A stretch of DNA of 62,243 bases, filler included, from Collodictyon triciliatum (GCA_043381765.1; 5 parts of 5 records of this genome joined end to end with filler, not necessarily neighbours in it); one strand, 5' to 3'. Shown: positions 1 to 57,708, counted from the whole stretch's first letter. The notes: generated by a model not told the origin, from the letters alone. Program-made: numbers and translations.

Positions 1-731
1 TTTTTTTTTTTTTTTTTTTTCTTTTTTTTTTTTTTTCTTTTTTTCTTTTTTTCTTTTTTTCTTTTTTTCTTTTTTTTTCTTTTGTGCTCTTCAAACAAAA
101 GTTGCAGNNNNNNNNNNNNNNNNNNNNNNNNNNNNNNNNNNNNNNNNNNNNNNNNNNNNNNNNNNNNNNNNNNNNNNNNNNNNNNNNNNNNNNNNNNNNN
201 NNNNNNNNNNNNNNNNNNNNNNNNNNNNNNNNNNNNNNNNNNNNNNNNNNNNNNNNNNNNNNNNNNNNNNNNNNNNNNNNNNNNNNNNNNNNNNNNNNNN
301 NNNNNNNNNNNNNNNNNNNNNNNNNNNNNNNNNNNNNNNNNNNNNNNNNNNNNNNNNNNNNNNNNNNNNNNNNNNNNNNNNNNNNNNNNNNNNNNNNNNN
401 NNNNNNNNNNNNNNNNNNNNNNNNNNNNNNNNNNNNNNNNNNNNNNNNNNNNNNNNNNNNNNNNNNNNNNNNNNNNNNNNNNNNNNNNNNNNNNNNNNNN
501 NNNNNNNNNNNNNNNNNNNNNNNNNNNNNNNNNNNNNNNNNNNNNNNNNNNNNNNNNNNNNNNNNNNNNNNNNNNNNNNNNNNNNNNNNNNNNNNNNNNN
601 NNNNNNNNNNNNNNNNNNNNNNNNNNNNNNNNNNNNNNNNNNNNNNNNNNNNNNNNNNNNNNNNNNNNNNNNNNNNNNNNNNNNNNNNNNNNNNNNNNNN
701 NNNNNNNNNNNNNNNNNNNNNNNNNNNNNNN

Positions 732-15129
<14,398 letters not shown>

Positions 15130-15568: not shown

Positions 15569-15668
15569 NNNNNNNNNNNNNNNNNNNNNNNNNNNNNNNN
15601 NNNNNNNNNNNNTTAATTAATTAANNNNNNNNNNNNNNNNNNNNNNNNNNNNNNNNNNNNNNNNNNNN
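15569..15668. other. Artificial contig-joining spacer (44 N + TTAATTAATTAA + 44 N)
   Basis: Six-frame-stop palindrome at 15613-15624 centred in exactly 100 bp; recurs identically four times. Confidence 0.95.
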
Positions 15669-23579: not shown

Positions 23580-24605
23580 ATGGGGGAGCAACAGGAGAAG
23601 CGCAAAGGAGCATGGGGCAGAGTTCAGGGACACATGAAAGCGGTGGTCCATTTTCTCAGCACAAACAGGCTTTGGATCGGCATTGGGCTCTTTGGAGGAC
23701 TCAGTGTGGCGGCCAATCTGGCTGTGTGGGTGTTTGGGATGGGCGTGCCTACGATTGTGTCTGGGTTTGTCGGGCTGCGTGTCTGGGAGGAGAAGCTTTA
23801 CTTTGACGCTTTACTGTCTGTCTCCAATCCCAACCTGGTTTCTGTCAGCATTCGGTCTCTGTCGTACGATCTGTCCTTGGGTGAGTGACTCCCCCTTTTC
23901 ACCTGTTTTTTTTTATAAACACATTTTATACCCCCTTTTTGAACACATGGTTTGGTGATAAAAATAAGAATAAAAAATAAGAATAAAAAATAAGAATAAA
24001 AAATAAGAATAAAAAATAAGAATAAAAAATAAGAATAAAAAATAAGAATAAAAAATAAGAATAAAAAATAAGAATAAAAAATAAGAAAAGTAAGGAAACA
24101 CTGTATCATCGACTGCACAGGGGTCTGTTCACAAACCCATGCACATTGACAAACAAAGAGAGAGAGAAAAAAAAAAGAGAAAGAAGGAAGATAATTAAAA
24201 TGACAATGGAATGACCATAATGGAAGAGCCAAACATCAGACACAGCAAACACAAGCATCCGACTGGGACGAGTGACCTACGAGAGAGACGAGGAGCTGAA
24301 AGTGATGTCCCAGAGCGCCGTCACGAAGCGGATGCCAAGCACCATCGCTTTGGGAGAGCACCCAGCCCAGTGCGAAGTGTTGCGGTGAGTCCCAGCGCCC
24401 AACTGCAAACCCGAATGCAAACTGACCCCGAGACAGCATCCTGAGGGAGGAGACGTTCCGACTGTCTGCAGACGGCTCCTTCCACCTGACGCGGGCGGGA
24501 TTCACACAGCGCAGGCGGCTGCGCGGCACCGAGATCATCCCGAAGCTCAACCGCACCGCCATCATCCAACCCACCCCCGGCCGCCCCCAAACCCAACAGC
24601 CATGA
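23580..24605 (+). CDS. N-terminal TM + LEA_2/WHy-like domain protein (exons 23580-23880, 24246-24384, 24437-24605)
   Basis: Hydrophobic segment WIGIGLFGGLSVAANLAVWVF followed by LSVSNPNLVSVSIRSLSYDLSL (NPN motif of LEA_2). Both donors are GTGAGT and splicing keeps frame to ...QTQQP*. Confidence 0.68.
23961..24087. repeat. (AAAATAAGAATAA)n 13-mer intronic repeat
   Basis: Direct tandem repeat. Confidence 0.9.
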
Positions 24606-24746
24606 ATCAGCAAAAAAGAAAAAAAAGAAAAAAAGAAAAGAAAGAAAGAAAAGAAAAAGGAGGTATAAGAACGAACCAAAAAAAAACAAAACAAAAAGAA
24701 GCAAGGATCGAATAAACAAAAACCCCATGGGTGATCCGCAGGGGCG

Positions 24747-25886
24747 ATGCGGGATCTGTGCCTGGAGGCCCTCGGAGTGCGGGCGGAGAGCAGCACGCCG
24801 CACCAGGACGCCTTCTCCCTCGGCACGCTGCTGCGCCCCGACAAGCACACGCCCGCGGGCTTCCTCGCCGCCTCCTTCACGCAGCCGCCCGTCCGCATCG
24901 CCGTCCACTTCCCGTATCTGCACACACCGACCCCCTCCGCACACACGCACACCACCAACCAGCCCCACCCGCCCCTGCAGGTTCCTCGTCCGCATCGACG
25001 CCATCCGGCTGGGCCTGAGGCTGCACACCCACACCACGGCCCGCTTCGCCCTCGCCCTGCAGACGCACACGGGGAGCCTCTACCGCCTTCCCGCCCACAC
25101 CGCCACCGCCACAGACACCGCCGCCTGCATCGCCGCCGACGCCTTCCCGCTCGCTGCCTGCGCCGCCGTCCGCACGGTCCACATCACCCTGCTCGCCCCC
25201 GCACGCACCGGCGACCCGTGCTGCCTGTCGCAGCTGTTTATTCACGGCGCCGTCTCCGCGCTCGAACCCCCCGCCGTCCACCGCCACGTCGACGCGCTCT
25301 ACCCGCCCCTACCTGATCCCCGGCCTGCCGACCACAAGGCCCGTCCCGCCCCGCCCCCCGTGCGCTACGAGGTCTGCCCTCCCCTGCCCCTGCCCCTGCC
25401 TCTGCCCGTCCTCACCGCGTGCCCGCCGCAGATCCTCGACGTCTTTGCACCGCGCGTCCCGGCCGCAGACCCTGCGCCCCGCTGCGAACCCCCGCCGGCC
25501 CCCGACGAGTTCCTCGACATGATCACGTGAGCTGCCGACCTATTGGACGCACAGAGTGCGGTGCGCATCGACATGTACATCCGTGAGTGTCTGTCTGCAT
25601 ATGGAATGGCCACTCACCGCGCTCCCCCGTCTGCAGCTTCGACGTGATGCGCGACCCGGTGCGCCTGCCGAGCGGGGCTGTTGTCGACCGCGCCACGCTG
25701 GACCGCCACCTGGCCACGCGCCTCACAGACCCGTTCACAAACGCCCCGCTCGACCCCGCCGCCGTCTGTCCGCTCCCCGCCCTGCGTCTGCGCATCCGGG
25801 CCCACCTCCTCGCCGCCTGCCCTCCGAGCCCCGTGTCCAAGCGGCGCCGTTGCGATGCAGACCCTGTCCATAAAGCCCCCGAGTGA
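24747..25886 (+). CDS. UBOX5: U-box protein, UBOX5/RNF37-like (4 exons)
   Basis: N-terminus DLCLEALG..GFLAASFTQPPVRIAVHFP-FLVRIDAIRL parallels the UBOX5 N-terminal domain. Spliced U-box PDEFLDMIT-FDVMRDPVRLPSGAVVDRATLDRHL..TDPFTNAPL. Confidence 0.82.
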
Positions 25887-26752
25887 ATCCCGTGGTCTGC
25901 CCTGCAGCCGCCCGAGAGAAATGGTTATGGCCGCTGGGCGGTGGGTCGAGTGGCTCTTCACTCCCCCGCACGCCGCGCCGCCGGATGTGGTGGTGGTTTA
26001 TTGTGCCCTTGTGCGAAGGAGAGTGAGAGGAGAAGGAAAAGTCCCAGAAGAAAGCAGATGGTGTGAATTCAGAGTTGAGGAATCAGTGTTGGTAGATGCT
26101 GGAGGAAAGGTTGTGTTTTTTTCTTCTTTTAGGTGCTCATGTGGGTGTCGTCGAGTTGGGCTAAGCTCTTGGCTTTTGGCTGGTTGGTGGGGCAGGCATC
26201 CCCGTTGTTGGATTTGTGAGACAAAGGATATAGTCATCGAGTATAATAAATTGTTTCTTTCGAATGAAATGAAGAAAATAATAGGATAAAATAGAGATGA
26301 TAGGAAAAATTGAGTGGCTGTATAGACAAAAGACAGATGTAAAAGTAGACTCGGTCATCAGTCTGAGATATCAGAGTGAGCCAAGTGCAAGTCCCCTCCC
26401 CCGCGAAGAAAGAAATTCCCATGAAAGAAAATAGAGATGAAAAAAGAAAAAAGAAAAGATAGAGCCCATAGACGTAGGAAAAAAAAAGAAAAGAAAATCA
26501 AAAGTTAAAGCAGTGTATCAAAGATGGATTAACAGGTAGCGTGCAGCCTCCGTTCTAAGCCCGTCCCAGCCAACAAACCAATCAGCCTACCAGCAAAAGC
26601 CCAACTAGCAACGAGTCATGACTCATAAGGCCGACTCAACCTATGATTGAGAGTGTCAGCAGAGGCATCAGGGAGCAGTGCAAGTGCAAGTGCAAGTGCA
26701 AAGTATCTCGAGATGTGAGTTTCAGGTATTCCTGTGCGATGCTTACATAGAG

Positions 26753-27893
26753 TTAGGCCGAGGGGCGTTGCCTGCGGACAGCGACACGTGGACCAGGCGC
26801 CAAAGATGTGGTGGTCAGAAACGGCGCCGAGCGGTTCGGTTCGGGTTGAGAAGGCAAGACGTAAGTCCGATGATTAGCAGGCATGTGATGAGGTGTGGGA
26901 AATGCAGTGCTGACAGGTTGACTCTGGGTGTGGCGCATGGGCTGGAAAGTATGAAAGGACAATGCCTGTCCAGAGCCAGCCAGCGCAGGCGGAAAATAGT
27001 CCACGTTGTCTGGGGCGTAGTACGCAGAGAGGGCCTCGGTCGGGGTCTCATGCAACTGTGGGAACCGAGGGATCGGGTCGTACGGGTAGCTGGAGACTGA
27101 GACTGGGAGAGGTAAGTGGTATGGCTGCCCGGGGGCGTGCAGCTGGCTCGGAATGCTGTCTGCATGTTGTCGTAGAGACACGAGCTCCTCCTTCATTTGT
27201 CGGATCAACCCGATGGACTCTGACAGTAACCTTAGCCGGTCGGATCGCACCTCTCCGTCCAAGTCCAGAGCGTCAGCCAGCTCCGTGAAGCGCTCCTGAA
27301 GTCGGGCCCGGCGATCCCGCTCCTTGATGATCTTTGCCTCGCGCTTGTCCTCCTTCATGACGCGTGTCNNNNNNNNNNNNNNNNNNNNNNNNNNNNNNNN
27401 NNNNNNNNNNNNNNNNNNNNNNNNNNNNNNNNNNNNNNNNNNNNNNNNNNNNNNNNNNNNNNNNNNNNNNNNNNNNNNNNNNNNNNNNNNNNNNNNNNNN
27501 NNNNNNNNNNNNNNNNNNNNNNNNNNNNNNNNNNNNNNNNNNNNNNNNNNNNNNNNNNNNNNNNNNNNNNNNNNNNNNNNNNNNNNNNNNNNNNNNNNNN
27601 NNNNNNNNNNNNNNNNNNNNNNNNNNNNNNNNNNNNNNNNNNNNNNNNNNNNNNNNNNNNNNNNNNNNNNNNNNNNNNNNNNNNNNNNNNNNNNNNNNNN
27701 NNNNNNNNNNNNNNNNNNNNNNNNNNNNNNNNNNNNNNNNNNNNNNNNNNNNNNNNNNNNNNNNNNNNNNNNNNNNNNNNNNNNNNNNNNNNNNNNNNNN
27801 NNNNNNNNNNNNNNNNNNNNNNNNNNNNNCTGGTGTGTAAAATGTGGTGTAGTCGTCGTGTTCAAAGAATCCCGCTTGTGCTTCGAAGGCCAT
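26753..27893 (-). CDS. bHLH transcription factor (interrupted by N gap 27369-27829)
   Basis: KIIKERDRRARLQERFTELADALDLDGEVRSDRLRLLSESIGLIRQMKEELVSL is a basic helix-loop-helix with a short zipper, followed by a Pro/Ser-rich tail. The start at 27893 (MAFEAQAGFFEHDDY) is inferred. Confidence 0.78.
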
Positions 27894-44408: not shown

Positions 44409-44508
44409 NNNNNNNNNNNNNNNNNNNNNNNNNNNNNNNNNNNNNNNNNNNNTTAATTAATTAANNNNNNNNNNNNNNNNNNNNNNNNNNNNNNNNNNNN
44501 NNNNNNNN
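44409..44508. other. Artificial contig-joining spacer
   Basis: TTAATTAATTAA at 44453-44464 flanked by 44 N on each side. Confidence 0.95.
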
Positions 44509-44581
<73 letters not shown>

Positions 44582-44588
44582 TATATAG

Positions 44589-47500
44589 CTTATCAGCTTA
44601 CCACGCTTCTCATCTTCGATGACTTGTCTTCAAGAGCTGATTTTAAATGAAAATCAGGTTATTCCTTATTATTCATTAATCTGTCGCAAATGTCACTATC
44701 TCTTGAGATACTGAATTATAATAAATCTATACAACCGAACTGATTTATCCAATATCTGCCCGCATTAAGTTATCGCATCTACCAGAATCAATAAGCAACT
44801 TAGTATGTCTTACTAAAATGATGGCTGCAAAAAACATGGTCTGTTTCTCTCTTCGTTTCAATAAAAAAGGTGGATAATATTTTGTCTTGGTTTTTCTTTT
44901 TGTACATTACAGATTAATGTAATACAATGATAGATTTCTGAAATCCCGCGGTCAATTCAAAATTGCTCAAACATACAAATCTTAGATTTGCAATCAAATC
45001 AGGCAAGAAACTAGTTAACTAGAATCATAGTATTTGATAGATCGGCCTGTTTACCAGATTACATGAATAGATTACATCCATGCCTCAGGAATTGTGCAAC
45101 GTCACTAGTCTGATTGATATCAATCTATCTGATAATAAGGTTTTTTTTTTTTTTTTAGTATTTTAATTTTAAAATATTCAATATAACTTTATGGAGTAGC
45201 GAAATGACTACACAATTATAAGGACTCACTGACTCATCTGTGATTGTAAATTTAGATATCACACCTACCAGAGAATATCGGCATGTGTCTCAATCTTTCA
45301 ATCGCAAGAATCTCAAATAATCAGGTTAATTTGAGCTTATTTGAAAATGCTCTAAATACCACTTTTATGAAGCCATCAGAGTCTAGGGACAGCTTTTCAA
45401 TTATTAGAATACCCCATCGATAACTAGATGTATCAAATGAGGAATAACAATTACTAAATTAAGCCGAACTTGATGAAATGATACTAATGATAAATTATCA
45501 AGATATCAAGTCTTCCAGAGTCGATTTCTCTCCTTTCCCATTTGAACACGCTGATTGCCGAAAAAAACATGGTGACATATCAGACGTGATATAAGCTGCA
45601 TAATTCAAATTGACTGACACACCAAATATCAATAGTTGTCAGACATACCGGCCCATTTGTGCAAGATTCCTAATATCCGAGATTTAGATATATCAGATAA
45701 CAAGGTACGTAAACGGGACGATGTTGATTATCTTCCAATATCAATTACAATGAGTCTTCTTTTATTCATTTATTGATTGATAATGTTCATTTTTATTTTT
45801 CACTGTATGTGCCGTCTCTAATATAGTTAAATTAATACGATGTAAACACAGATTTACATGATTCCCGAATCAATAACTGTCCTAACCAATCTGAAAATTT
45901 TGGATCTTTCAAACAACAACATCGATCTTTTGGAAAACATGCAAGAACAAGAATACTATTTAACATCTTCAAAAAACCTGCACGATTCCACCATCAATGT
46001 CAATAATGAAGAACTGATTTTATGTCTGTCGATATTTTTATTTATTTTTCTTTTGAATTCAAACTATCGCTCCATCAACATATACGATACAGTTACATAT
46101 ATTATGTGCCGCCATACTGAATCACAATGCTGATCAATATCCCTCCTTTGCTTTTTTCTTCTTCTGAAATAGCTATTCCGCCATCCGTAATGTCTATGAT
46201 TCATTGTGACATCAATCTGGTTGGCAACAGAAATATTCCATCTCAACTCGCTGACGAGGTTAAAGCTCAAAGAAATTATAAAGAGATACCAGTTGTGGAA
46301 AGAACCCTCATCGTTCTTTCTCATCTCAAAAGTATATCATCCATCGACCAAGCCTACCTTAAGGCCTACGAAGAATATGCTGAGATGAAGTTAAAGGAAT
46401 GGATAAAAGGGAGGGCCAATGAAGTAAATCTCGAGAGGATTGTTGACCTAGCAATTAGGGCTGACGCCTTGATCTTTATAGGCAGCAAGCCTATACAAAA
46501 TTACGTTAACACGCAGTGGTCAAACAATTCGACTCTCGCTGGTTACTTGGCAAAACACGAGAAAACGTCGTCTTGGTGGGATGGTGGAATCAAATCAGGC
46601 TTTATGCACCTTTGGATTGCCTCGGAAAAACAATTGCCAAGTTTTAGAAATTCGATGAAGGCCAAGTTTTTCATATCTGCGCTGATGTATGCCATCTATA
46701 TCACAACGTTGATGGCATTTATTGTAAAACAAACGTCATTCTATGAAATAAGCAATTTTTACTCCTCGGATGTTTTGAGGTCATACTATCCTGTTGACCA
46801 AGTAGGTGATGTGGACGGGTTTTGGGGGCTTCTAAACTCTACCTTGCTTGAGTCTATCTACAAGGGACCGAAAAGTGATTACTTTGAATACTCCAGCCAA
46901 CATGACGATTGGGCTGCTCCATATTACCGACTTGTGGCCTCTGTCAGGCTTCGGCAACTAAGATCTAAAACGAAGCCATGCTCAACTATTATCCCGTTGG
47001 GAGGAGAGAAGCAACTGGCGAATCCTGCACAGAGAAGCATTTGCATAGAAAATTATTCACCGAATTCTCAATCGAAGGAGCCTTATGGAGAAAAAGGCCA
47101 GTTTCAATGGGAGTCGCCAAAGTCTGTCGGTTCATTTTCTACGCTTGGTTCTACTGAAACGCTATACGGCGGTGGGGGATATGTCGAATATCTTACACTT
47201 GACTATGTCACAGCTTCTGAGAGGGTGCAGAGTTTATATGAGGATAAATGGATAGATGTGCAGACCAGATTCGTATCTGTCGAGTTACTTGTTGCAAATG
47301 ATAACACCGAGGTAATTAGTCTTGTTTCCCTTATTTTTGAATTTCCACCACTGGCGTTAGTTATCGGCTCAGTAAAGGTTAGCACAAGGAATCAACGATT
47401 ATTCGAAATCGATTCATCTTTTGGGTTATACCAAACAGTCCTGTTGATATATGCGATAGGATTCTTGGTTCATGAGCTGCAACAAATGAAAATCATGAAG

Positions 47501-48607
47501 TTGGAATACTGCCTTGATATGTGGAATTACTTTGACCTTCTTAACATCGCCATCCTTTTCGTTATGATTGGTATACAGATAAAACTAGTCTCATCTGGTG
47601 TCGCAACTATGAACCTTGCCGCGATGCCTCATGGTGGTTTTGTGGAATTGAGTTACCTGATGAATATATCTGATGTTCAAAAGGTCTTGTACGGGATACT
47701 TTTGCTGCTATCCTGGATGCGATTCTTGGCCTTCTTTTCTATTCACACCACATTTGGACCAATAATCATGACAATTTATCGAATGACGATTCGACTGTTT
47801 GAATTTTACTTTATACTAGTTTTATTTTTGGTTGCTTTTGCGTCAGCGTTATTTACTATTTACAGCAACGACATTATCGAATACTCGTCTATGTCGCAGT
47901 CTTTACCGACGATGGCCTTGGCACTTTTTGGCAATACCAACTACGATACCATTAAAAAATATGACACATTTGTGGGTCCTGTTATATTTTTTATGTCGTT
48001 GTTGATATGTGTGATTCTCTTACTTAACTTTCTCATCGCCATATTGAGTGGCACCTATGAGGATATCCGCCAAGATTCTCAGAAACAGTATAGGAAGTTA
48101 TTTGCTGCCACTGTCATGTCTTTCATGAAAGCACCTACACCAGCGCCGTTCAACTTACTCTCGCCGTTGGCTCCGTTTGGAAATGCAAGTGTTGAATTCC
48201 GTCTACAATACTGGTCATTTCTATGGGACGCACGCCAAGTGTCAAACTCATACAATATCCTATTCTTGTTTCCTAGAATCAAGAAAATATGGAATAATCA
48301 CAGATTCACGTGGACAGATTGTTTCTTTATCTGGGTTGATTATCTTGTCGTATTGGTGAATTCCGTGTCGTATACATTATTGGTCATGATACTAATTCCA
48401 ATCCACCATTTAAACAGTTTGATTTCCAATAAACTTGCTGAGGCCTTTTCTTACTTTGTATTCTTTTTCCTTTGGCTAATGCTGATGCGCGGAGTCTGGA
48501 TAGCTACGCATCCTGTATGGATGATATTCTGGGGAGCATCGCTGTTAGCTCAGAAATGCTTAAGCTGTTGCAAAGGAAAGGTTGTTGATATCTCTACTCA
48601 CCCCTAG
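44589..48607 (+). CDS. LRR-containing polycystin-2/TRP-like cation channel (5'-partial)
   Basis: Seven 69-nt LRR exons plus exon 45852-46023 splice in frame to exon 46173-48607. That exon has TOP-domain motifs (VRLRQLR, YGGGGY, WIDVQTRFV), six TM segments, pore ALFGNTNY and S6 LLNFLIAILSGTY. Confidence 0.88.
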
Positions 48608-48608
48608 C

Positions 48609-48968
48609 TTTTCCTTTTCCCCTTTTCCCCTTTTCCCCTTTTCCCCTTTTCCCCTTTTCCCCTTTTCCCCTTTTCCCCTTTTCCCCTTTTCCCCTTTNNN
48701 NNNNNNNNNNNNNNNNNNNNNNNNNNNNNNNNNNNNNNNNNNNNNNNNNNNNNNNNNNNNNNNNNNNNNNNNNNNNNNNNNNNNNNNNNNNNNNNNNTTT
48801 CCCTTTTTCCCTTTTTCCCTTTTTCCCTTTTTCCCTTTTTCCCTTTTTCCCTTTTTCCCTTTTTCCCTTTTTCCCTTTTTCCCTTTTTCCCTTTTTCCCT
48901 TTTACCCTTTTTCCCTTTTTCCCTTGTTCCCTTTTTCCCTTTTTCCCTTTTTCCCTTTTTCCCTTTTA
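48609..48968. repeat. (TTTTCCCC)n then (TTTTTCCC)n polypyrimidine microsatellite, with internal gap
   Basis: Directly visible 8-mer tandem repeats. Confidence 0.9.
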
Positions 48969-49042
48969 TCAATTTCTTGTATCATAGCAAAATTACACTA
49001 TCGCAAAGAAAACATAAAATTTCTAATTTAACTTAATCTCAT

Positions 49043-50580
49043 ATGGCTCCAAAGAAAGCACAGCCAAACATAATAGGTAATTGATAAAATATTCGTACCT
49101 ATGTATAATCAATTCACTCACGAGTAAAACAGAGAATAATATTTGTGCTAAAATAAATTAGGAATGACTCCAATCATATCCGCTCCTTCGCCTACTCAAT
49201 CCACAAATGTTTCGAGAAAAACATCTCTTTCAATTGATCCACAAGCATTACTGGCAGCTGCATCTTCGAAAACAAACCTAACTCATGGGGAATATATATG
49301 TAACAAGGGAAATGAAAAAGTTTTCCATGTGATTGAGGACACAGGTTTCAGCACACAAAGACGCAAAGAGTGCGAGTTTACCTATTTCATTCCTAAAATT
49401 AGTGTCGGCTTCATACTTGTTGAGGATACTTTCAATTACGGGGACACAGTCGATCAATCAACACATCATATTTTATTTGACCTTGACCTATGTGAATTCA
49501 AGACAACGCTAACGAGTGGCATAACGGTTGTCGCACAATCACCAATACCACCATCTTTTGGCTCCATCGTCAAATTTTGTATCGAAAACGGAGACCCAAC
49601 CATTTTTAAAGTCCAATGCGAAGGAGAGAAGACTGTTTGTGAGTTTTATATGCCACAAAATCGTACAGCACTGCCCGTTATTGTTCTTTGTCCTGGAGGT
49701 TCTACAATTAGATTTGATGCAACAAGATCTGTCCAAACGCTTCCATCAAACGTTGCAAACTTAATCGGAACATCGCTAATAGAGTCAGACTTTCTGTTTG
49801 GGAATGGAAACATAGGAGCCTTTTATGTCGATGATGTAGACAAATTAATCCTTCAGTGCGTGTATTCATCGAACTTTGTTTTTGATGCAATAGCTGGAAA
49901 TTCAGACAACGAAGTTTGGGATGCCGATAGATGGGATATGAGCTTTCATGTAAATGAAACTTGTCTATGTAGTGAGTTTCTGGTTGGGGTGTATCTGGCC
50001 TCTGAAACGTGGTCCGCAGGAATTTTGGGCCGCACAGACCATATTTTGATGCGCTGGGCACTGAACGCAGATAGAATACACATCACAGGCCAGATTTCGC
50101 AGTAAGCCTGTCAACCAAAGTTTTTTTTTTTGCCACCACTCCATACGCTTAATGCTACATTATTTTTTTTAAACTATATATATATTTTTTTTCACATGCT
50201 GTAGAGCCAAAGTAGATTTCCATTACCAAATCACAAACACATCACTTCTTTTCGCACCTGTGTTCGGGTTTGCTGTTTGCCAAGAGACAAAGACCGTCTC
50301 GCTATCTTTGGATGACACGTTTGTCCCCCAACTGTGCTGGGAGTTGCCTGCCCAAAGAAACCCTTGGGTTCCCTTCATCCCCGCCTCTGGTGTCGGCTTG
50401 CGAATCCACTTCCGGGCCGATGCACATCCGGACTCTTTCTGGGAGTGCGTCCGAAAGCACATTCGCGGGACACACCGCAACACTCGGTCAGCTTCATCCA
50501 GCTCTGCCGGCCAGCCTGTCGCTTTGCTTCTTCGGGACGGCACTTCATCGTCCTCGTCCTCATCCTCATCTGCCCCTTGA
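49043..50580 (+). CDS. Hypothetical beta-rich protein of about 450 aa, possibly tandem divergent SPRY-like domains (exons 49043-49076, 49162-50101, 50205-50580)
   Basis: MAPKKAQPNII-G splices onto the 313-aa ORF, which splices (CA|GTAAGC..TAG|A) to the ORF ending 50580. Two units end similarly (LPVIVLCPGGSTIRF and WVPFIPASGVGLRIHF). The fold call is tentative. Confidence 0.65.
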
Positions 50581-50962
50581 CTCACCCCGAGCTGTCAGAT
50601 GCTGCCGCACAAACGGCTCATTGCCGAATGTGGAGCACAAGCGTCTGCCCACTCGCAGAAGTGATCTCTTGATTGTTTCCCGCCGGATGTCTGCCTCGGT
50701 TCAAACGAAAAATCTCGATATAAAAGACAAAAAACAATCAAAAGACAAAAAACAAAAACAAGCAAACAAACAAAAGACAAAAAACAAACAAACGATCAAA
50801 CAAAACAAAACAAAACAAAACAAAAAACAATCAGAAACAAACAAACAAACAAAAAACAATCAGATACAAACAAACAAACAAACAAACAAACAAACAAACA
50901 AACAAACAAACAAACAAACAAACAAACAAACAAACAAACAAACAAACAAACAAACAAACAAA

Positions 50963-51062
50963 NNNNNNNNNNNNNNNNNNNNNNNNNNNNNNNNNNNNNN
51001 NNNNNNTTAATTAATTAANNNNNNNNNNNNNNNNNNNNNNNNNNNNNNNNNNNNNNNNNNNN
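50963..51062. other. Artificial contig-joining spacer
   Basis: TTAATTAATTAA at 51007-51018 flanked by 44 N on each side. Confidence 0.95.
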
Positions 51063-57608: not shown

Positions 57609-57708
57609 NNNNNNNNNNNNNNNNNNNNNNNNNNNNNNNNNNNNNNNNNNNNTTAATTAATTAANNNNNNNNNNNNNNNNNNNNNNNNNNNNNNNNNNNN
57701 NNNNNNNN
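57609..57708. other. Artificial contig-joining spacer
   Basis: TTAATTAATTAA at 57653-57664 flanked by 44 N on each side. Confidence 0.95.

Follow-up and report, generated by a model that had tools for sequence, protein, structure and literature searches.

Does the array of leucine-rich repeats (LRRs) encoded in a 62,243-nucleotide stretch of the Collodictyon triciliatum genome (GCA_043381765.1; five records joined end to end with filler, hereafter the window) belong to the polycystin-like channel encoded directly downstream of it, and if so, on which side of the membrane would the repeats lie and what kind of channel would they serve? A first reading of the DNA (the original prediction) had placed a single gene at 44589–48607, with a cytoplasmic LRR array fused to a hybrid polycystin/TRP channel. 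Our analysis suggests that the locus is probably a single gene, expressed and protein-coding, from a flagellated eukaryote, and that it encodes a subunit, at least 1342 residues long, of a transient receptor potential (TRP)-superfamily cation channel with cytoplasmic LRRs. It represents a new architectural variant of TRP channel, whose only other occurrences so far are transcripts without annotation from a single further protist, Diphylleia rotans.

The LRR exons and their transcripts

Eight LRR exons can be read from the DNA between 44589 and 46023 on the plus strand. The first seven are 69 nt long, encode one LRR each and lie in phase 0: exon 1 at 44589–44657 (LISLPRFSSSMTCLQELILNENQ), placed from its sequence and splice sites, exon 2 at 44770–44838 (LSHLPESISNLVCLTKMMAAKNM), exon 3 at 44934–45002 (ISEIPRSIQNCSNIQILDLQSNQ), exon 4 at 45071–45139 (ITSMPQELCNVTSLIDINLSDNK), exon 5 at 45256–45324 (ISHLPENIGMCLNLSIARISNNQ), exon 6 at 45503–45571 (ISSLPESISLLSHLNTLIAEKNM) and exon 7 at 45636–45704 (LSDIPAHLCKIPNIRDLDISDNK). 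They are followed by the 172-nt exon 8 at 45852–46023 (IYMIPESITVLTNLKILDLSNNNIDLL...EELIL), comprising an LRR and a linker, which ends in the phase-1 donor T|GTCTGT and gave a weak match to LRR_8 (E 0.002), under the Pfam gathering score. The exon flanks are AG acceptors and GT donors, with a single GC donor, after exon 3. A strict LRR regular expression run in six frames over the whole 62 kb returned six matches, exons 2 and 8 among them, all on the plus strand at 44770–45917 and none elsewhere. The N-terminus encoded in the window comprises at least nine LRRs.

The sole public sequencing run containing the stretch is X1, in which 0.44 of the stretch's words occur; no RNA run is listed as containing it, and the library kind of X1 is only guessed in its record. 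We read X1 as cDNA because its joints skip introns and because the end letters of two of its contigs are what we take to be the SMART template-switch oligo/adapter. Four X1 contigs were placed on the locus at ≥99% identity. One of these, 597 nt long, joins LRR exons 1–7 at ≥99% identity to the window, with joints at 44655/44768 (112 nt skipped, GT..AG ends), 44837/44933, 45000/45069 (68 nt skipped, after the GC donor of exon 3), 45322/45501 (178 nt skipped, GT..AG ends) and 45570/45635; it enters exon 7 and ends at 45657 in adapter-like letters. Exon 4 corresponds to positions 344–412 (69 nt) of X1 record 1, between the pieces for exons 3 and 5; its own joint sits at a poly-T repeat and has no joint row listed, and X1 depth in the bin holding this exon (45080–45219) was 1.5. 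On the channel exon, X1 contigs cover 46360–46940, 47119–47556 and 47549–48580, and they cover none of 45658–46359, a stretch holding all of exon 8 and intron 8 plus the initial 190 nt of the channel exon; the contigs therefore neither span nor contradict the 46023/46173 junction. The spliced contigs ruled out a prokaryotic reading of the open reading frames (ORFs), and open frames together with spliced transcripts at ≥99% identity ruled out a pseudogene. Eight single-base differences between X1 and the window were seen in the channel exon (46837, 47223, 47313, 47476, 47519, 47620, 48167 and 48490, at depths of 5.9–7.8), which points to another strain of this organism, another allele or low-depth errors.

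The gap-free contig begins only at 44509, after an N44-TTAATTAATTAA-N44 linker, so that the gene's 5' end is absent from the window and the real first exons lie beyond the contig edge, as had been expected. The 597-nt X1 contig carries 141 bases upstream of 44592 that are absent from the window; these amount to three bases of exon 1 plus 138, probably two further 69-nt LRR exons, and show the assembly to lack at least two 5' exons. A (TAA)n microsatellite occupies 44509–44580, at the contig start just 5' of LRR exon 1.

Junction between the LRR array and the channel

One gap-free stretch, 44509–48697, carries the LRR exons and the channel exon, all on the plus strand. The reading frames of exon 8 and the channel exon differ, which requires an intron or a frameshift between the two. 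At least eight LRRs had been predicted to splice in frame to the channel exon through a donor T|GTCTGT (46023/46024) and an acceptor AG|CT (46172/46173); both sites are present, as are the exons themselves, and the junction is supported by frame logic and homology rather than by a transcript. The GT at 46024 is the only phase-compatible one in 45900–46133, and from the point where the channel frame opens (46121) up to a conserved block beginning IPP there is just one AG, at 46171–46172, after a pyrimidine-rich tract, making 46023|46173 the single donor/acceptor pair that restores the frame from exon 8 to the channel exon. The donor hexamer GTCTGT is identical to that of the contig-verified intron 2.

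The spliced product across the junction reads ...NNEELIL-S-IPPSVMSMIHCDINLVGNRNIP... and the junction falls within the conserved block IPPE.C....I.L.GN..P of a MAFFT alignment with the six closest relatives, in all six of which the block follows the LRR array in the same polypeptide. On this evidence, one fused gene with cytoplasmic LRRs appears very probable.

A polycystin-type membrane core

The channel exon (exon 9, 46173–48580, plus strand) encodes, in order, a last LRR-like turn, a linker helical region, transmembrane segment S1, a TOP domain, S2–S6 with the pore, a TRP-like helix, a P.P.N motif and two hydrophobic helices, as read from Pfam, PDB searches, an AlphaFold2 (AF2) model, Foldseek, VIA-align and the X1 contigs. 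Its translation, P0001, passes the Pfam gathering cut-offs for Polycystin_dom (residues 209–404, E 2e-22, 80.1 bits vs 23.6) and PKD_channel (418–630, E 6.4e-20, 72.0 bits vs 22.4). In a PDB sequence search PKD2 was the best match (4.2e-32), then PKD2L1 and PKD1L3, with TRPC6/3/4/5 following from 2.6e-11 down. The AF2 model of P0001, built on a 10-sequence alignment (pLDDT 72.2, pTM 0.61), also resembled PKD2 most closely in Foldseek (E 6.7e-22, TMt 0.79) and VIA-align (Z 31.2, rmsd 3.7, 444 residues aligned, model 160–638), PKD2 chains giving VIA Z values of 29–31 over model residues of about 158–644.

S1 (FISALMYAIYITTLMAFIV) lies at 46670–46726, the extracellular TOP/polycystin domain between S1 and S2 at 46799–47386, and S2–S6 with the pore loop at 47426–48064, the last delimited by Pfam and the PKD2 alignment. 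The model has strands at 251–406, in the TOP domain. All of 10 sequences keep the two cysteines of this domain, C269 and C290, which fall on the TOP cysteines of PKD2 in the alignment (RQLRVRNGSC...KEC), a pair that forms a disulfide in PKD2. These results show that the membrane core is of the polycystin-2 (TRPP) type, with S1, a large TOP domain holding a conserved cysteine pair, S2–S6 and a pore loop, and bear out the PKD2/TRPP-type TOP domain and pore of the original prediction.

At the selectivity filter, F585-G586-N587 (47927–47935) align to the L-G-D of PKD2, and the window protein has FGN in its place; across paralogues the filter position varies (GD, GN, GE or AD). The replacement of LGD by FGN makes ion selectivity, and even conduction by a homomer, uncertain. 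S5 and S6, the pore helix and the gate motif LLNFLIA show good conservation, with L616, N618, L620, A622 and I623 invariant in 10 of 10 sequences. The protein is likely to be a working cation-conducting subunit.

Topology of the repeats

Hydrophobic segments were defined on the spliced model as those reaching a Kyte–Doolittle value of at least 1.6. The first such segment is S1 (model residues 385–403), with none before it in the window model, in agreement with the prediction that no transmembrane segment lies between the LRRs and S1. A further segment at 599–617 lies in the TOP domain and was not counted as a membrane span, since its counterpart in the PKD2 alignment belongs to that domain. 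Each of the six complete LRR-bearing relatives examined has an initial Met and a polar N-terminus without a hydrophobic leader; the only segments preceding S1 in these six are three marginal ones (1.61–1.69) inside the LRRs of P0006 and P0155, none of them N-terminal. As no hydrophobic segment precedes S1 and the TOP domain, with its conserved cysteine pair, lies outside, the linker and the LRRs are assigned to the cytoplasm; extracellular LRRs were ruled out on topology.

Two hydrophobic segments follow S6 at model residues 938–956 and 977–995, at a position conserved in the relatives. They correspond to two helices (P0001 713–748 and 753–799; 48311–48571) to which AF2 gave low confidence (pLDDT about 40–56), and which possibly form a membrane hairpin; if they do, the C-terminal region may be cytoplasmic as well. 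Two to three extra hydrophobic segments had been predicted at the C-terminus: two do follow S6, but they are not at the C-terminus of the protein, as the frame runs on to 50105.

TRPC/TRPM-like cytosolic parts

The cytosolic region before S1 (165 residues, 46175–46669) consists of the IPP..L.GN..P block followed by helices with a weak likeness to the linker helical domain of TRPC/TRPM, including LAIRADALIFIGSKPIQNYVNTQW, as delimited by the family profile, AF2 and structure alignment. A profile of this region built from seven family members matched 53 PDB chains at E ≤ 10, all 53 of them TRPC or TRPM and nothing else. The best match was TRPC3 (4.3e-4; profile 31–164 against residues 214–373), with the family consensus LAIKADALEFLSNKLIQEQVKEIW inside it. 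AF2 predicted pre-S1 helices at 23–158, with pLDDT mostly 73–90 over residues 21–120 and 56–61 over 121–160. Structural alignment matched TRPM2/4/8/3 and TRPV chains to the model from residue 1–38 through to 654–673 (Z 14–15), whereas PKD2 aligns only over about 158–644.

Behind the pore, the TRP-like helix (P0001 627–651, directly after the S6 helix at 600–624 in the AF2 model) and PTPAPFNLL (654–662) span 48053–48160. A 110-residue query of S6 and tail matched 163 PDB chains at E ≤ 10; the best 60 of these were TRPV (Inactive 3.1e-4, TRPV3), TRPC4/5/6/3, the Chlamydomonas TRP-like channel 6pw4, NOMPC, TRPM-like chains and two voltage-dependent channels, and no PKD2 chain was among these 60. 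Against TRPC4 (E 1.2e-3), QKQYRKLFAATVMSFMK--APTPAPFNLL aligned through the TRP helix to the proline motif, PAPFNL falling on PPPFNI, and the TRP box reads QKQYRK, lacking the tryptophan of EWKFAR. In single-sequence PDB searches, the 81 residues after S6 gave no match and the 192 residues before S1 one chance match.

P.P.N stands exactly 33 residues past the S6 motif in seven of seven core-clade proteins, and likewise in P0009, an ankyrin-bearing metagenomic protein; it is absent from the 105 other rows of our tree, namely 14 of a 21-row clade described below and the 91 remaining (71 of these 91 matched the S6 regular expression). Both motifs of the original prediction, KPIQNYVNTQW before S1 and QKQYRKLFAATV..PTPAPFNLL after S6, are present, and the similarity to TRPC and TRPM is measurable; their description as atypical of TRPP drew too sharp a contrast, animal TRPPs being reported with a pre-S1 tryptophan and a 'TRP-like domain' in the accessible part of PMC6483072. 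Sequence comparisons support the use of 'hybrid' for a TOP-domain channel that appears to keep recognisable TRPC/TRPM-like cytosolic sequence, not for a chimera of two genes.

The 3' end and the C-terminal region

The end of the gene had been placed at the TAG at 48605–48607, and the transcripts move it to a TAA at 50103–50105. The 1125-nt X1 contig (record 4) covers 47549–48580 and then continues with 93 letters unlike the next window bases; the first 30 of these are not contiguous in the window and split between 49055–49076 and a continuation from 49162. Since the X1 letters resume at 49055, the channel exon ends at 48580 (AAG|gttgtt), on a codon boundary, and since the contig leaves the window there, the TAG is intronic. 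Intron 9 (48581–49054, plus strand) holds this TAG, a (CCCTTTT)n-type microsatellite and a 100-N gap (48698–48797). It is followed on the same strand by a 22-nt micro-exon 10 (49055–49076; KAQPNII plus one base), formed by the first 22 letters of the loose end and flanked by ..aaag| and |gtaatt, and by exon 11 (49162–50105; 944 nt, about 314 codons), where letters 23–30 match after an ag and the frame is open through the join. The spliced model has 11 exons in the window and 1342 residues, still truncated at the 5' end, with about 320 residues beyond the channel exon.

Exon 11 encodes no recognisable family. The C-terminal region matched no Pfam family at E ≤ 10, its 313–321 residues gave nothing below E 1.5 in phmmer against 161 stored proteins of the family search, and the best Atlas score was 0.86, below the trust level. 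Compared with a profile of six Diphylleia tails it reached E 0.082 (HMMER) and a probability of 0.2% (hhalign), and its single-sequence AF2 model was strand-rich and unusable (pLDDT 33.7). Four of the six closest Diphylleia relatives (P0002, P0003, P0004 and P0006) have a SPRY domain (Pfam) after the post-S6 hydrophobic helices. The window protein's tail is similar in size to these SPRY-bearing tails and looks unrelated; a divergent SPRY-like fold in it is neither shown nor excluded.

Relatives and phylogeny

A HMMER search of 1.84 billion representative proteins with the channel exon returned 3325 proteins with E ≤ 1e-3, of which 14 reached E ≤ 1e-30. The six best (29–32% identity, E 2.3e-110 to 4.4e-86, 1263–2106 residues) match from channel-exon residue 1–3 on. 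These six and P0010 carry N-terminal LRRs by Pfam, and in the top six the LRRs lie directly upstream, followed by Polycystin_dom and PKD_channel. The LRR-bearing relatives are all Trinity transcripts of Diphylleia rotans (EukProt EP00002: P025998, P011439, P035109, P022273, P033110 and P032529; also P026996), and the LRR plus TOP channel architecture occurs in at least seven Diphylleia rotans transcript clusters, 21–29% identical to the window protein (alignment A1). Of 161 proteins stored at that point, 11 had at least two LRR regular-expression matches, all in these Diphylleia clusters; P0002 has LRRs by Pfam and falls below the regular-expression count.

Other searches were less informative. 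A word-indexed protein search with the channel exon found no match at E ≤ 1e-10, an Atlas search with P0001 returned only ordinary PKD2-like and mucolipin clusters, none of them LRR-bearing, and a word-indexed search with alignment A1, covering proteins of 3916–5000 residues only, gave two unrelated giant LRR proteins and is uninformative. P0153 (395 residues, a cluster mate of P0005), compared with the PDB to type the LRRs, had no matches.

The tree (IQ-TREE, LG+G4, SH-aLRT support only) comprised 112 rows, the window protein plus those 111 of 150 listed hits that span query positions 260–625 (39 were left out). The window protein and six Diphylleia LRR proteins grouped together with SH-aLRT 96, unresolved within, and with P0008 and P0010 added the support was 97. 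A 21-row clade (SH-aLRT 95) encloses the LRR group, its other members carrying Ank, WD40, CVNH or other long N-termini. Pfam searches of 15 further hits found Ank plus TOP channel in P0017, P0019, P0055, P0058 and P0067 and WD40 plus TOP channel in P0025, the named ones being Amoebozoa (Balamuthia, Planoprotostelium, Cavostelium, Pyxidicula and Difflugia). The metagenomic P0009 has the same post-S6 motif and spacing, with ankyrin repeats before the TOP domain. The prediction that the LRRs sit where ankyrin repeats sit therefore agrees with P0009 and with the Ank or WD40 repeats of the wider clade. Module swapping on this channel chassis seems common. WD40 propellers were seen in the Cavostelium transcript, and three cyanovirin-N homology (CVNH) stretches plus ankyrin in the Planoprotostelium 'polycystin 2' (P0025 and P0058).

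The window protein and its Diphylleia rotans paralogues constitute an unnamed family, the LRR-TOP-TRP clade, in which N-terminal LRRs, the IPP block, a helical linker, the TOP channel and P.P.N share one polypeptide; for the window protein we infer the LRR-channel join.

Comparison with known channels

The Diphylleia rotans transcripts share with the window protein the whole order of LRRs, IPP block, helical linker, S1, TOP domain, S2–S6, TRP-like helix, P.P.N and two hydrophobic helices; they differ in the SPRY domain of four of the six closest and in tails without similarity to that of the window. PKD2 and PKD2L1 (TRPP) share the core of six transmembrane (TM) segments, the TOP domain with its cysteine pair, the pore helix and S6, and are the best PDB matches in both sequence and structure. 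PKD2 has no counterpart of the LRRs, the 160-residue helical pre-S1 region, P.P.N, the two extra helices or the C-terminal 320 residues, and its filter is LGD instead of FGN. Its cytosolic termini lack repeat domains, and its C-terminus carries an EF-hand and a coiled coil, whereas no EF-hand or other Pfam domain was found in the window tail.

TRPC3/4/6, and more loosely TRPM, appear to resemble the window protein in the helical region before S1, which aligns weakly with the linker helical domain of TRPC3, and resemble it in a nearly identical spacing from S6 through the TRP helix to PPPFN and in having cytosolic N-terminal repeats. Their repeats are ankyrin, not LRR, they have a short S1–S2 loop where the window protein has a TOP domain of about 200 residues, they possess the EWKFAR tryptophan, and their whole-protein similarity is far weaker than that of PKD2 (2.6e-11 vs 4e-32). 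Channels of Amoebozoa and a metagenome (the Balamuthia 'TRP-like ion channel Pkd2' KAL6042513.1, the Planoprotostelium 'polycystin 2' PRP81470.1, the Cavostelium transcript and ENA P0009) likewise place long cytoplasmic repeats before a TOP channel, with Ank, WD40 or CVNH replacing LRR; of the 21-row clade, the 14 rows outside the core all lack P.P.N.

Two proteins known to combine LRRs with a channel or channel-like domain are instructive. Polycystin-1 unites LRRs and a polycystin-type membrane domain in one polypeptide, its LRRs being extracellular and capped, with REJ, GPS and PLAT regions and 11 TM segments; none of these traits was found in the window protein or its relatives. The LRRC8 volume-regulated anion channels have cytoplasmic, C-terminal LRRs in each subunit and a pannexin-like membrane fold, and offer an analogy for an LRR ring under a pore that regulates gating; no sequence relation to them was seen in any search made.

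TRPW, a WD40-bearing TRP family of choanoflagellates described in two preprints (bioRxiv 10.64898/2026.06.15.732144 and.732245; June 2026), offers, in the available portions of these texts, the precedent for a repeat swap marking a distinct sensory family. Like the window protein it is a TRP channel of unicellular eukaryotes with non-ankyrin cytosolic repeats; unlike it, TRPW is described there as type I with WD40 repeats and a limited extracellular surface, whereas the window protein has a TOP domain and LRRs. In the portion available, one of the preprints describes type II channels (TRPML, TRPP) as being without many type I features. No WD40 match was found by Pfam in P0001 or its closest relatives. 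Neither 'leucine' nor 'LRR' occurs in the available main texts of the two preprints, nor does any such term in the accessible part of the eLife survey PMC9242649. An LRR-bearing TRP or polycystin-type channel was described nowhere in the literature searched. The architecture is not unique to this genome, given the seven or more Diphylleia rotans clusters.

Alternative explanations

Several points weigh against the interpretation of the locus as a single gene for an LRR-bearing TRP-type channel. The exon 8–exon 9 junction is bridged by no transcript, resting on frame logic and homology only, and a separate channel protein could conceivably begin at an ATG of the channel frame (46127). Asparagine stands at the position of the PKD2 filter aspartate (FGN vs LGD), the canonical EWKFAR tryptophan is absent (QKQYRK), the TRPC/TRPM likeness of the cytosolic parts is weak in E-value (4e-4, 1e-3), and in Pfam none of seven single pre-S1 segments matched a TRP-related family. 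The AF2 model derives from a 10-sequence alignment and its C-terminal third lies below pLDDT 56.

Two adjacent genes, an LRR-only protein ending at the stop codon at 46131–46133 and a separate channel gene starting from the ATG at 46127, would be consistent with the exon-8 frame staying open to 46133, with the ATG in the channel frame and with the fact that no direct transcript evidence for the 46023/46173 junction was obtained. We consider this arrangement improbable, as the two reading frames would share 7 nt and between them lie the GTCTGT donor seen in the contig-verified intron 2, a pyrimidine-rich tract and a single AG, while the channel exon opens inside the IPP..L.GN..P block that is C-terminal to the LRRs in the transcripts of all six closest relatives. 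Moreover, tblastn of the relatives gave weak LRR matches (E 0.019–0.98) at 45497–46130 with the channel directly after, and nothing else relevant in the window. If the gene is single, its product might still be arranged as in polycystin-1, which carries N-terminal LRRs outside the cell and a polycystin-type channel-like domain, and the missing 5' end might encode a leader peptide. This is extremely improbable: the stretch from the LRRs to S1 has no hydrophobic segment, placing the repeats on the pre-S1 side, opposite the TOP domain, and the complete relatives start with Met, without a leader. LRRNT/LRRCT, REJ, GPS and PLAT families are absent from P0001 and from seven of seven LRR-bearing relatives (Pfam, E ≤ 1e-3 for the relatives), and the Pfam-checked REJ/GPS/PLAT proteins P0092 and P0137 sit elsewhere in the tree, outside the 21-row clade.

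A single gene with cytoplasmic LRRs could also encode a non-conducting or auxiliary subunit with no pore of its own, pairing with a canonical PKD2-like subunit as the PKD1 family does with PKD2, its LRR and C-terminal modules acting as adaptors. The replacement of the filter aspartate by asparagine and the variability of this position in paralogues (D, N, E and one A-D) would fit such a role, and PKD1/PKD2 and PKD1L3/PKD2L1 heteromers exist in the PDB. It nevertheless seems unlikely, given that both S5 and S6, the pore helix and the gate LLNFLIA are well conserved (five residues invariant in 10 of 10), that the layout is that of the 6-TM PKD2 rather than the 11-TM PKD1, and that the Diphylleia paralogue P0003 also has N in the filter, which marks it as a family variant rather than decay.

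Proposed mechanism and significance

Under the interpretation of a conducting channel with cytoplasmic LRRs, four subunits would assemble into a cation channel of the plasma membrane or that of the flagellum, with an LRR solenoid in place of the ankyrin repeats of TRPA/C/N/V or the WD40 repeats of TRPW. The solenoids, attached to the TRPC-like linker helices, would build a cytosolic layer, and together with the C-terminal module might serve as a cytosolic platform for binding a ligand or protein, or as an anchor. The platform's state would be relayed through the linker, the pre-S1 region and the TRP-like helix to the S6 gate, along the gating route known from other TRP channels. A linker/pre-S1/TRP helix route to the gate is described for other TRP channels in the accessible part of PMC6483072. 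Whether the LRRs directly control gating rather than only anchor or target the channel is doubtful, direct control being the less probable of the two roles though a real possibility.

A more speculative proposal, which we regard as unlikely, is that the LRR-TOP-TRP proteins are receptor-channels whose cytosolic LRRs recognise an intracellular protein or a microbial or viral product and open a Ca2+-permeable pore, with SPRY (in Diphylleia) or a fast-evolving C-terminal module (in the window) taking part, and that the family is at the same time a living intermediate between group-1 and group-2 TRP channels. The receptor-channel part would be compatible with our data, as at least seven diverged Diphylleia clusters have modules of a recognition type (LRR, SPRY) at either cytosolic end; the sensing of ligands or pathogens, like Ca2+ permeability, is conjecture. 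If true, LRR-sensor-coupled Ca2+ signalling would have in these proteins a protist counterpart resting on a TRP scaffold, and an intermediate between the groups would bear on the features of the ancestral TRP channel (TOP domain with TRPC-like linker, TRP helix and PPPFN).

The locus is of interest irrespective of this proposal. TRP families are sorted largely by their cytosolic modules, and TRPW is treated as a distinct ancient sensory family in the available portions of the June 2026 preprints. A TOP domain, the group-2 hallmark, combined with traces of group-1 cytosolic parts provides a concrete test case for the divergence of the two groups, and ankyrin at the same position in P0009 suggests that repeat domains have been exchanged on one channel chassis. 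The annotation gains a corrected gene model, extended by about 320 spliced codons at the 3' end and lacking at least two 5' exons.

Genomic context

The DNA of the window is eukaryotic and contains 18 N runs. The linker N44-TTAATTAATTAA-N44 was read at 44409–44508 and 50963–51062; the gaps at 15569–15668 and 57609–57708 have the same geometry, from which the same linker form was assumed there. These gaps look like arbitrary or artificial joins of unordered contigs, and genes that adjoin in the window need not adjoin in the genome. If the gaps are such joins, the locus forms its own small scaffold (44509–50962), with the gap at 48698–48797 as the only one inside it. The (CCCTTTT)n-type microsatellite lies within 48608–48965, around this gap in intron 9, and (CAAA)n microsatellites stand at two contig ends (50860–50962 and 43330–43420). 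Long microsatellites are probably behind the assembly breaks.

Elsewhere in the window, an open frame at 26756–27367 on the minus strand contains a stretch resembling a basic helix-loop-helix (KIIKERDRRARLQERFTELADALD), an assignment left unsupported by Pfam (no family at E ≤ 1e-3). A G+C island (0.62 vs 0.30–0.45 nearby) at 24001–26000 holds long low-complexity open frames on both strands. A hydin gene (hydrocephalus-inducing, a flagellar central-pair protein) occupies 2–13401 on the minus strand, with one exon of more than 6 kb and several further exons upstream, and carries Hydin_ADK and CFAP65/ASH Ig-like domains (Pfam); the best database hydins, from chytrids and oomycetes, are at most 36% identical to its ORF, so that the databases searched yielded no close relative of the organism. 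The presence of this gene indicates that the organism builds flagella.

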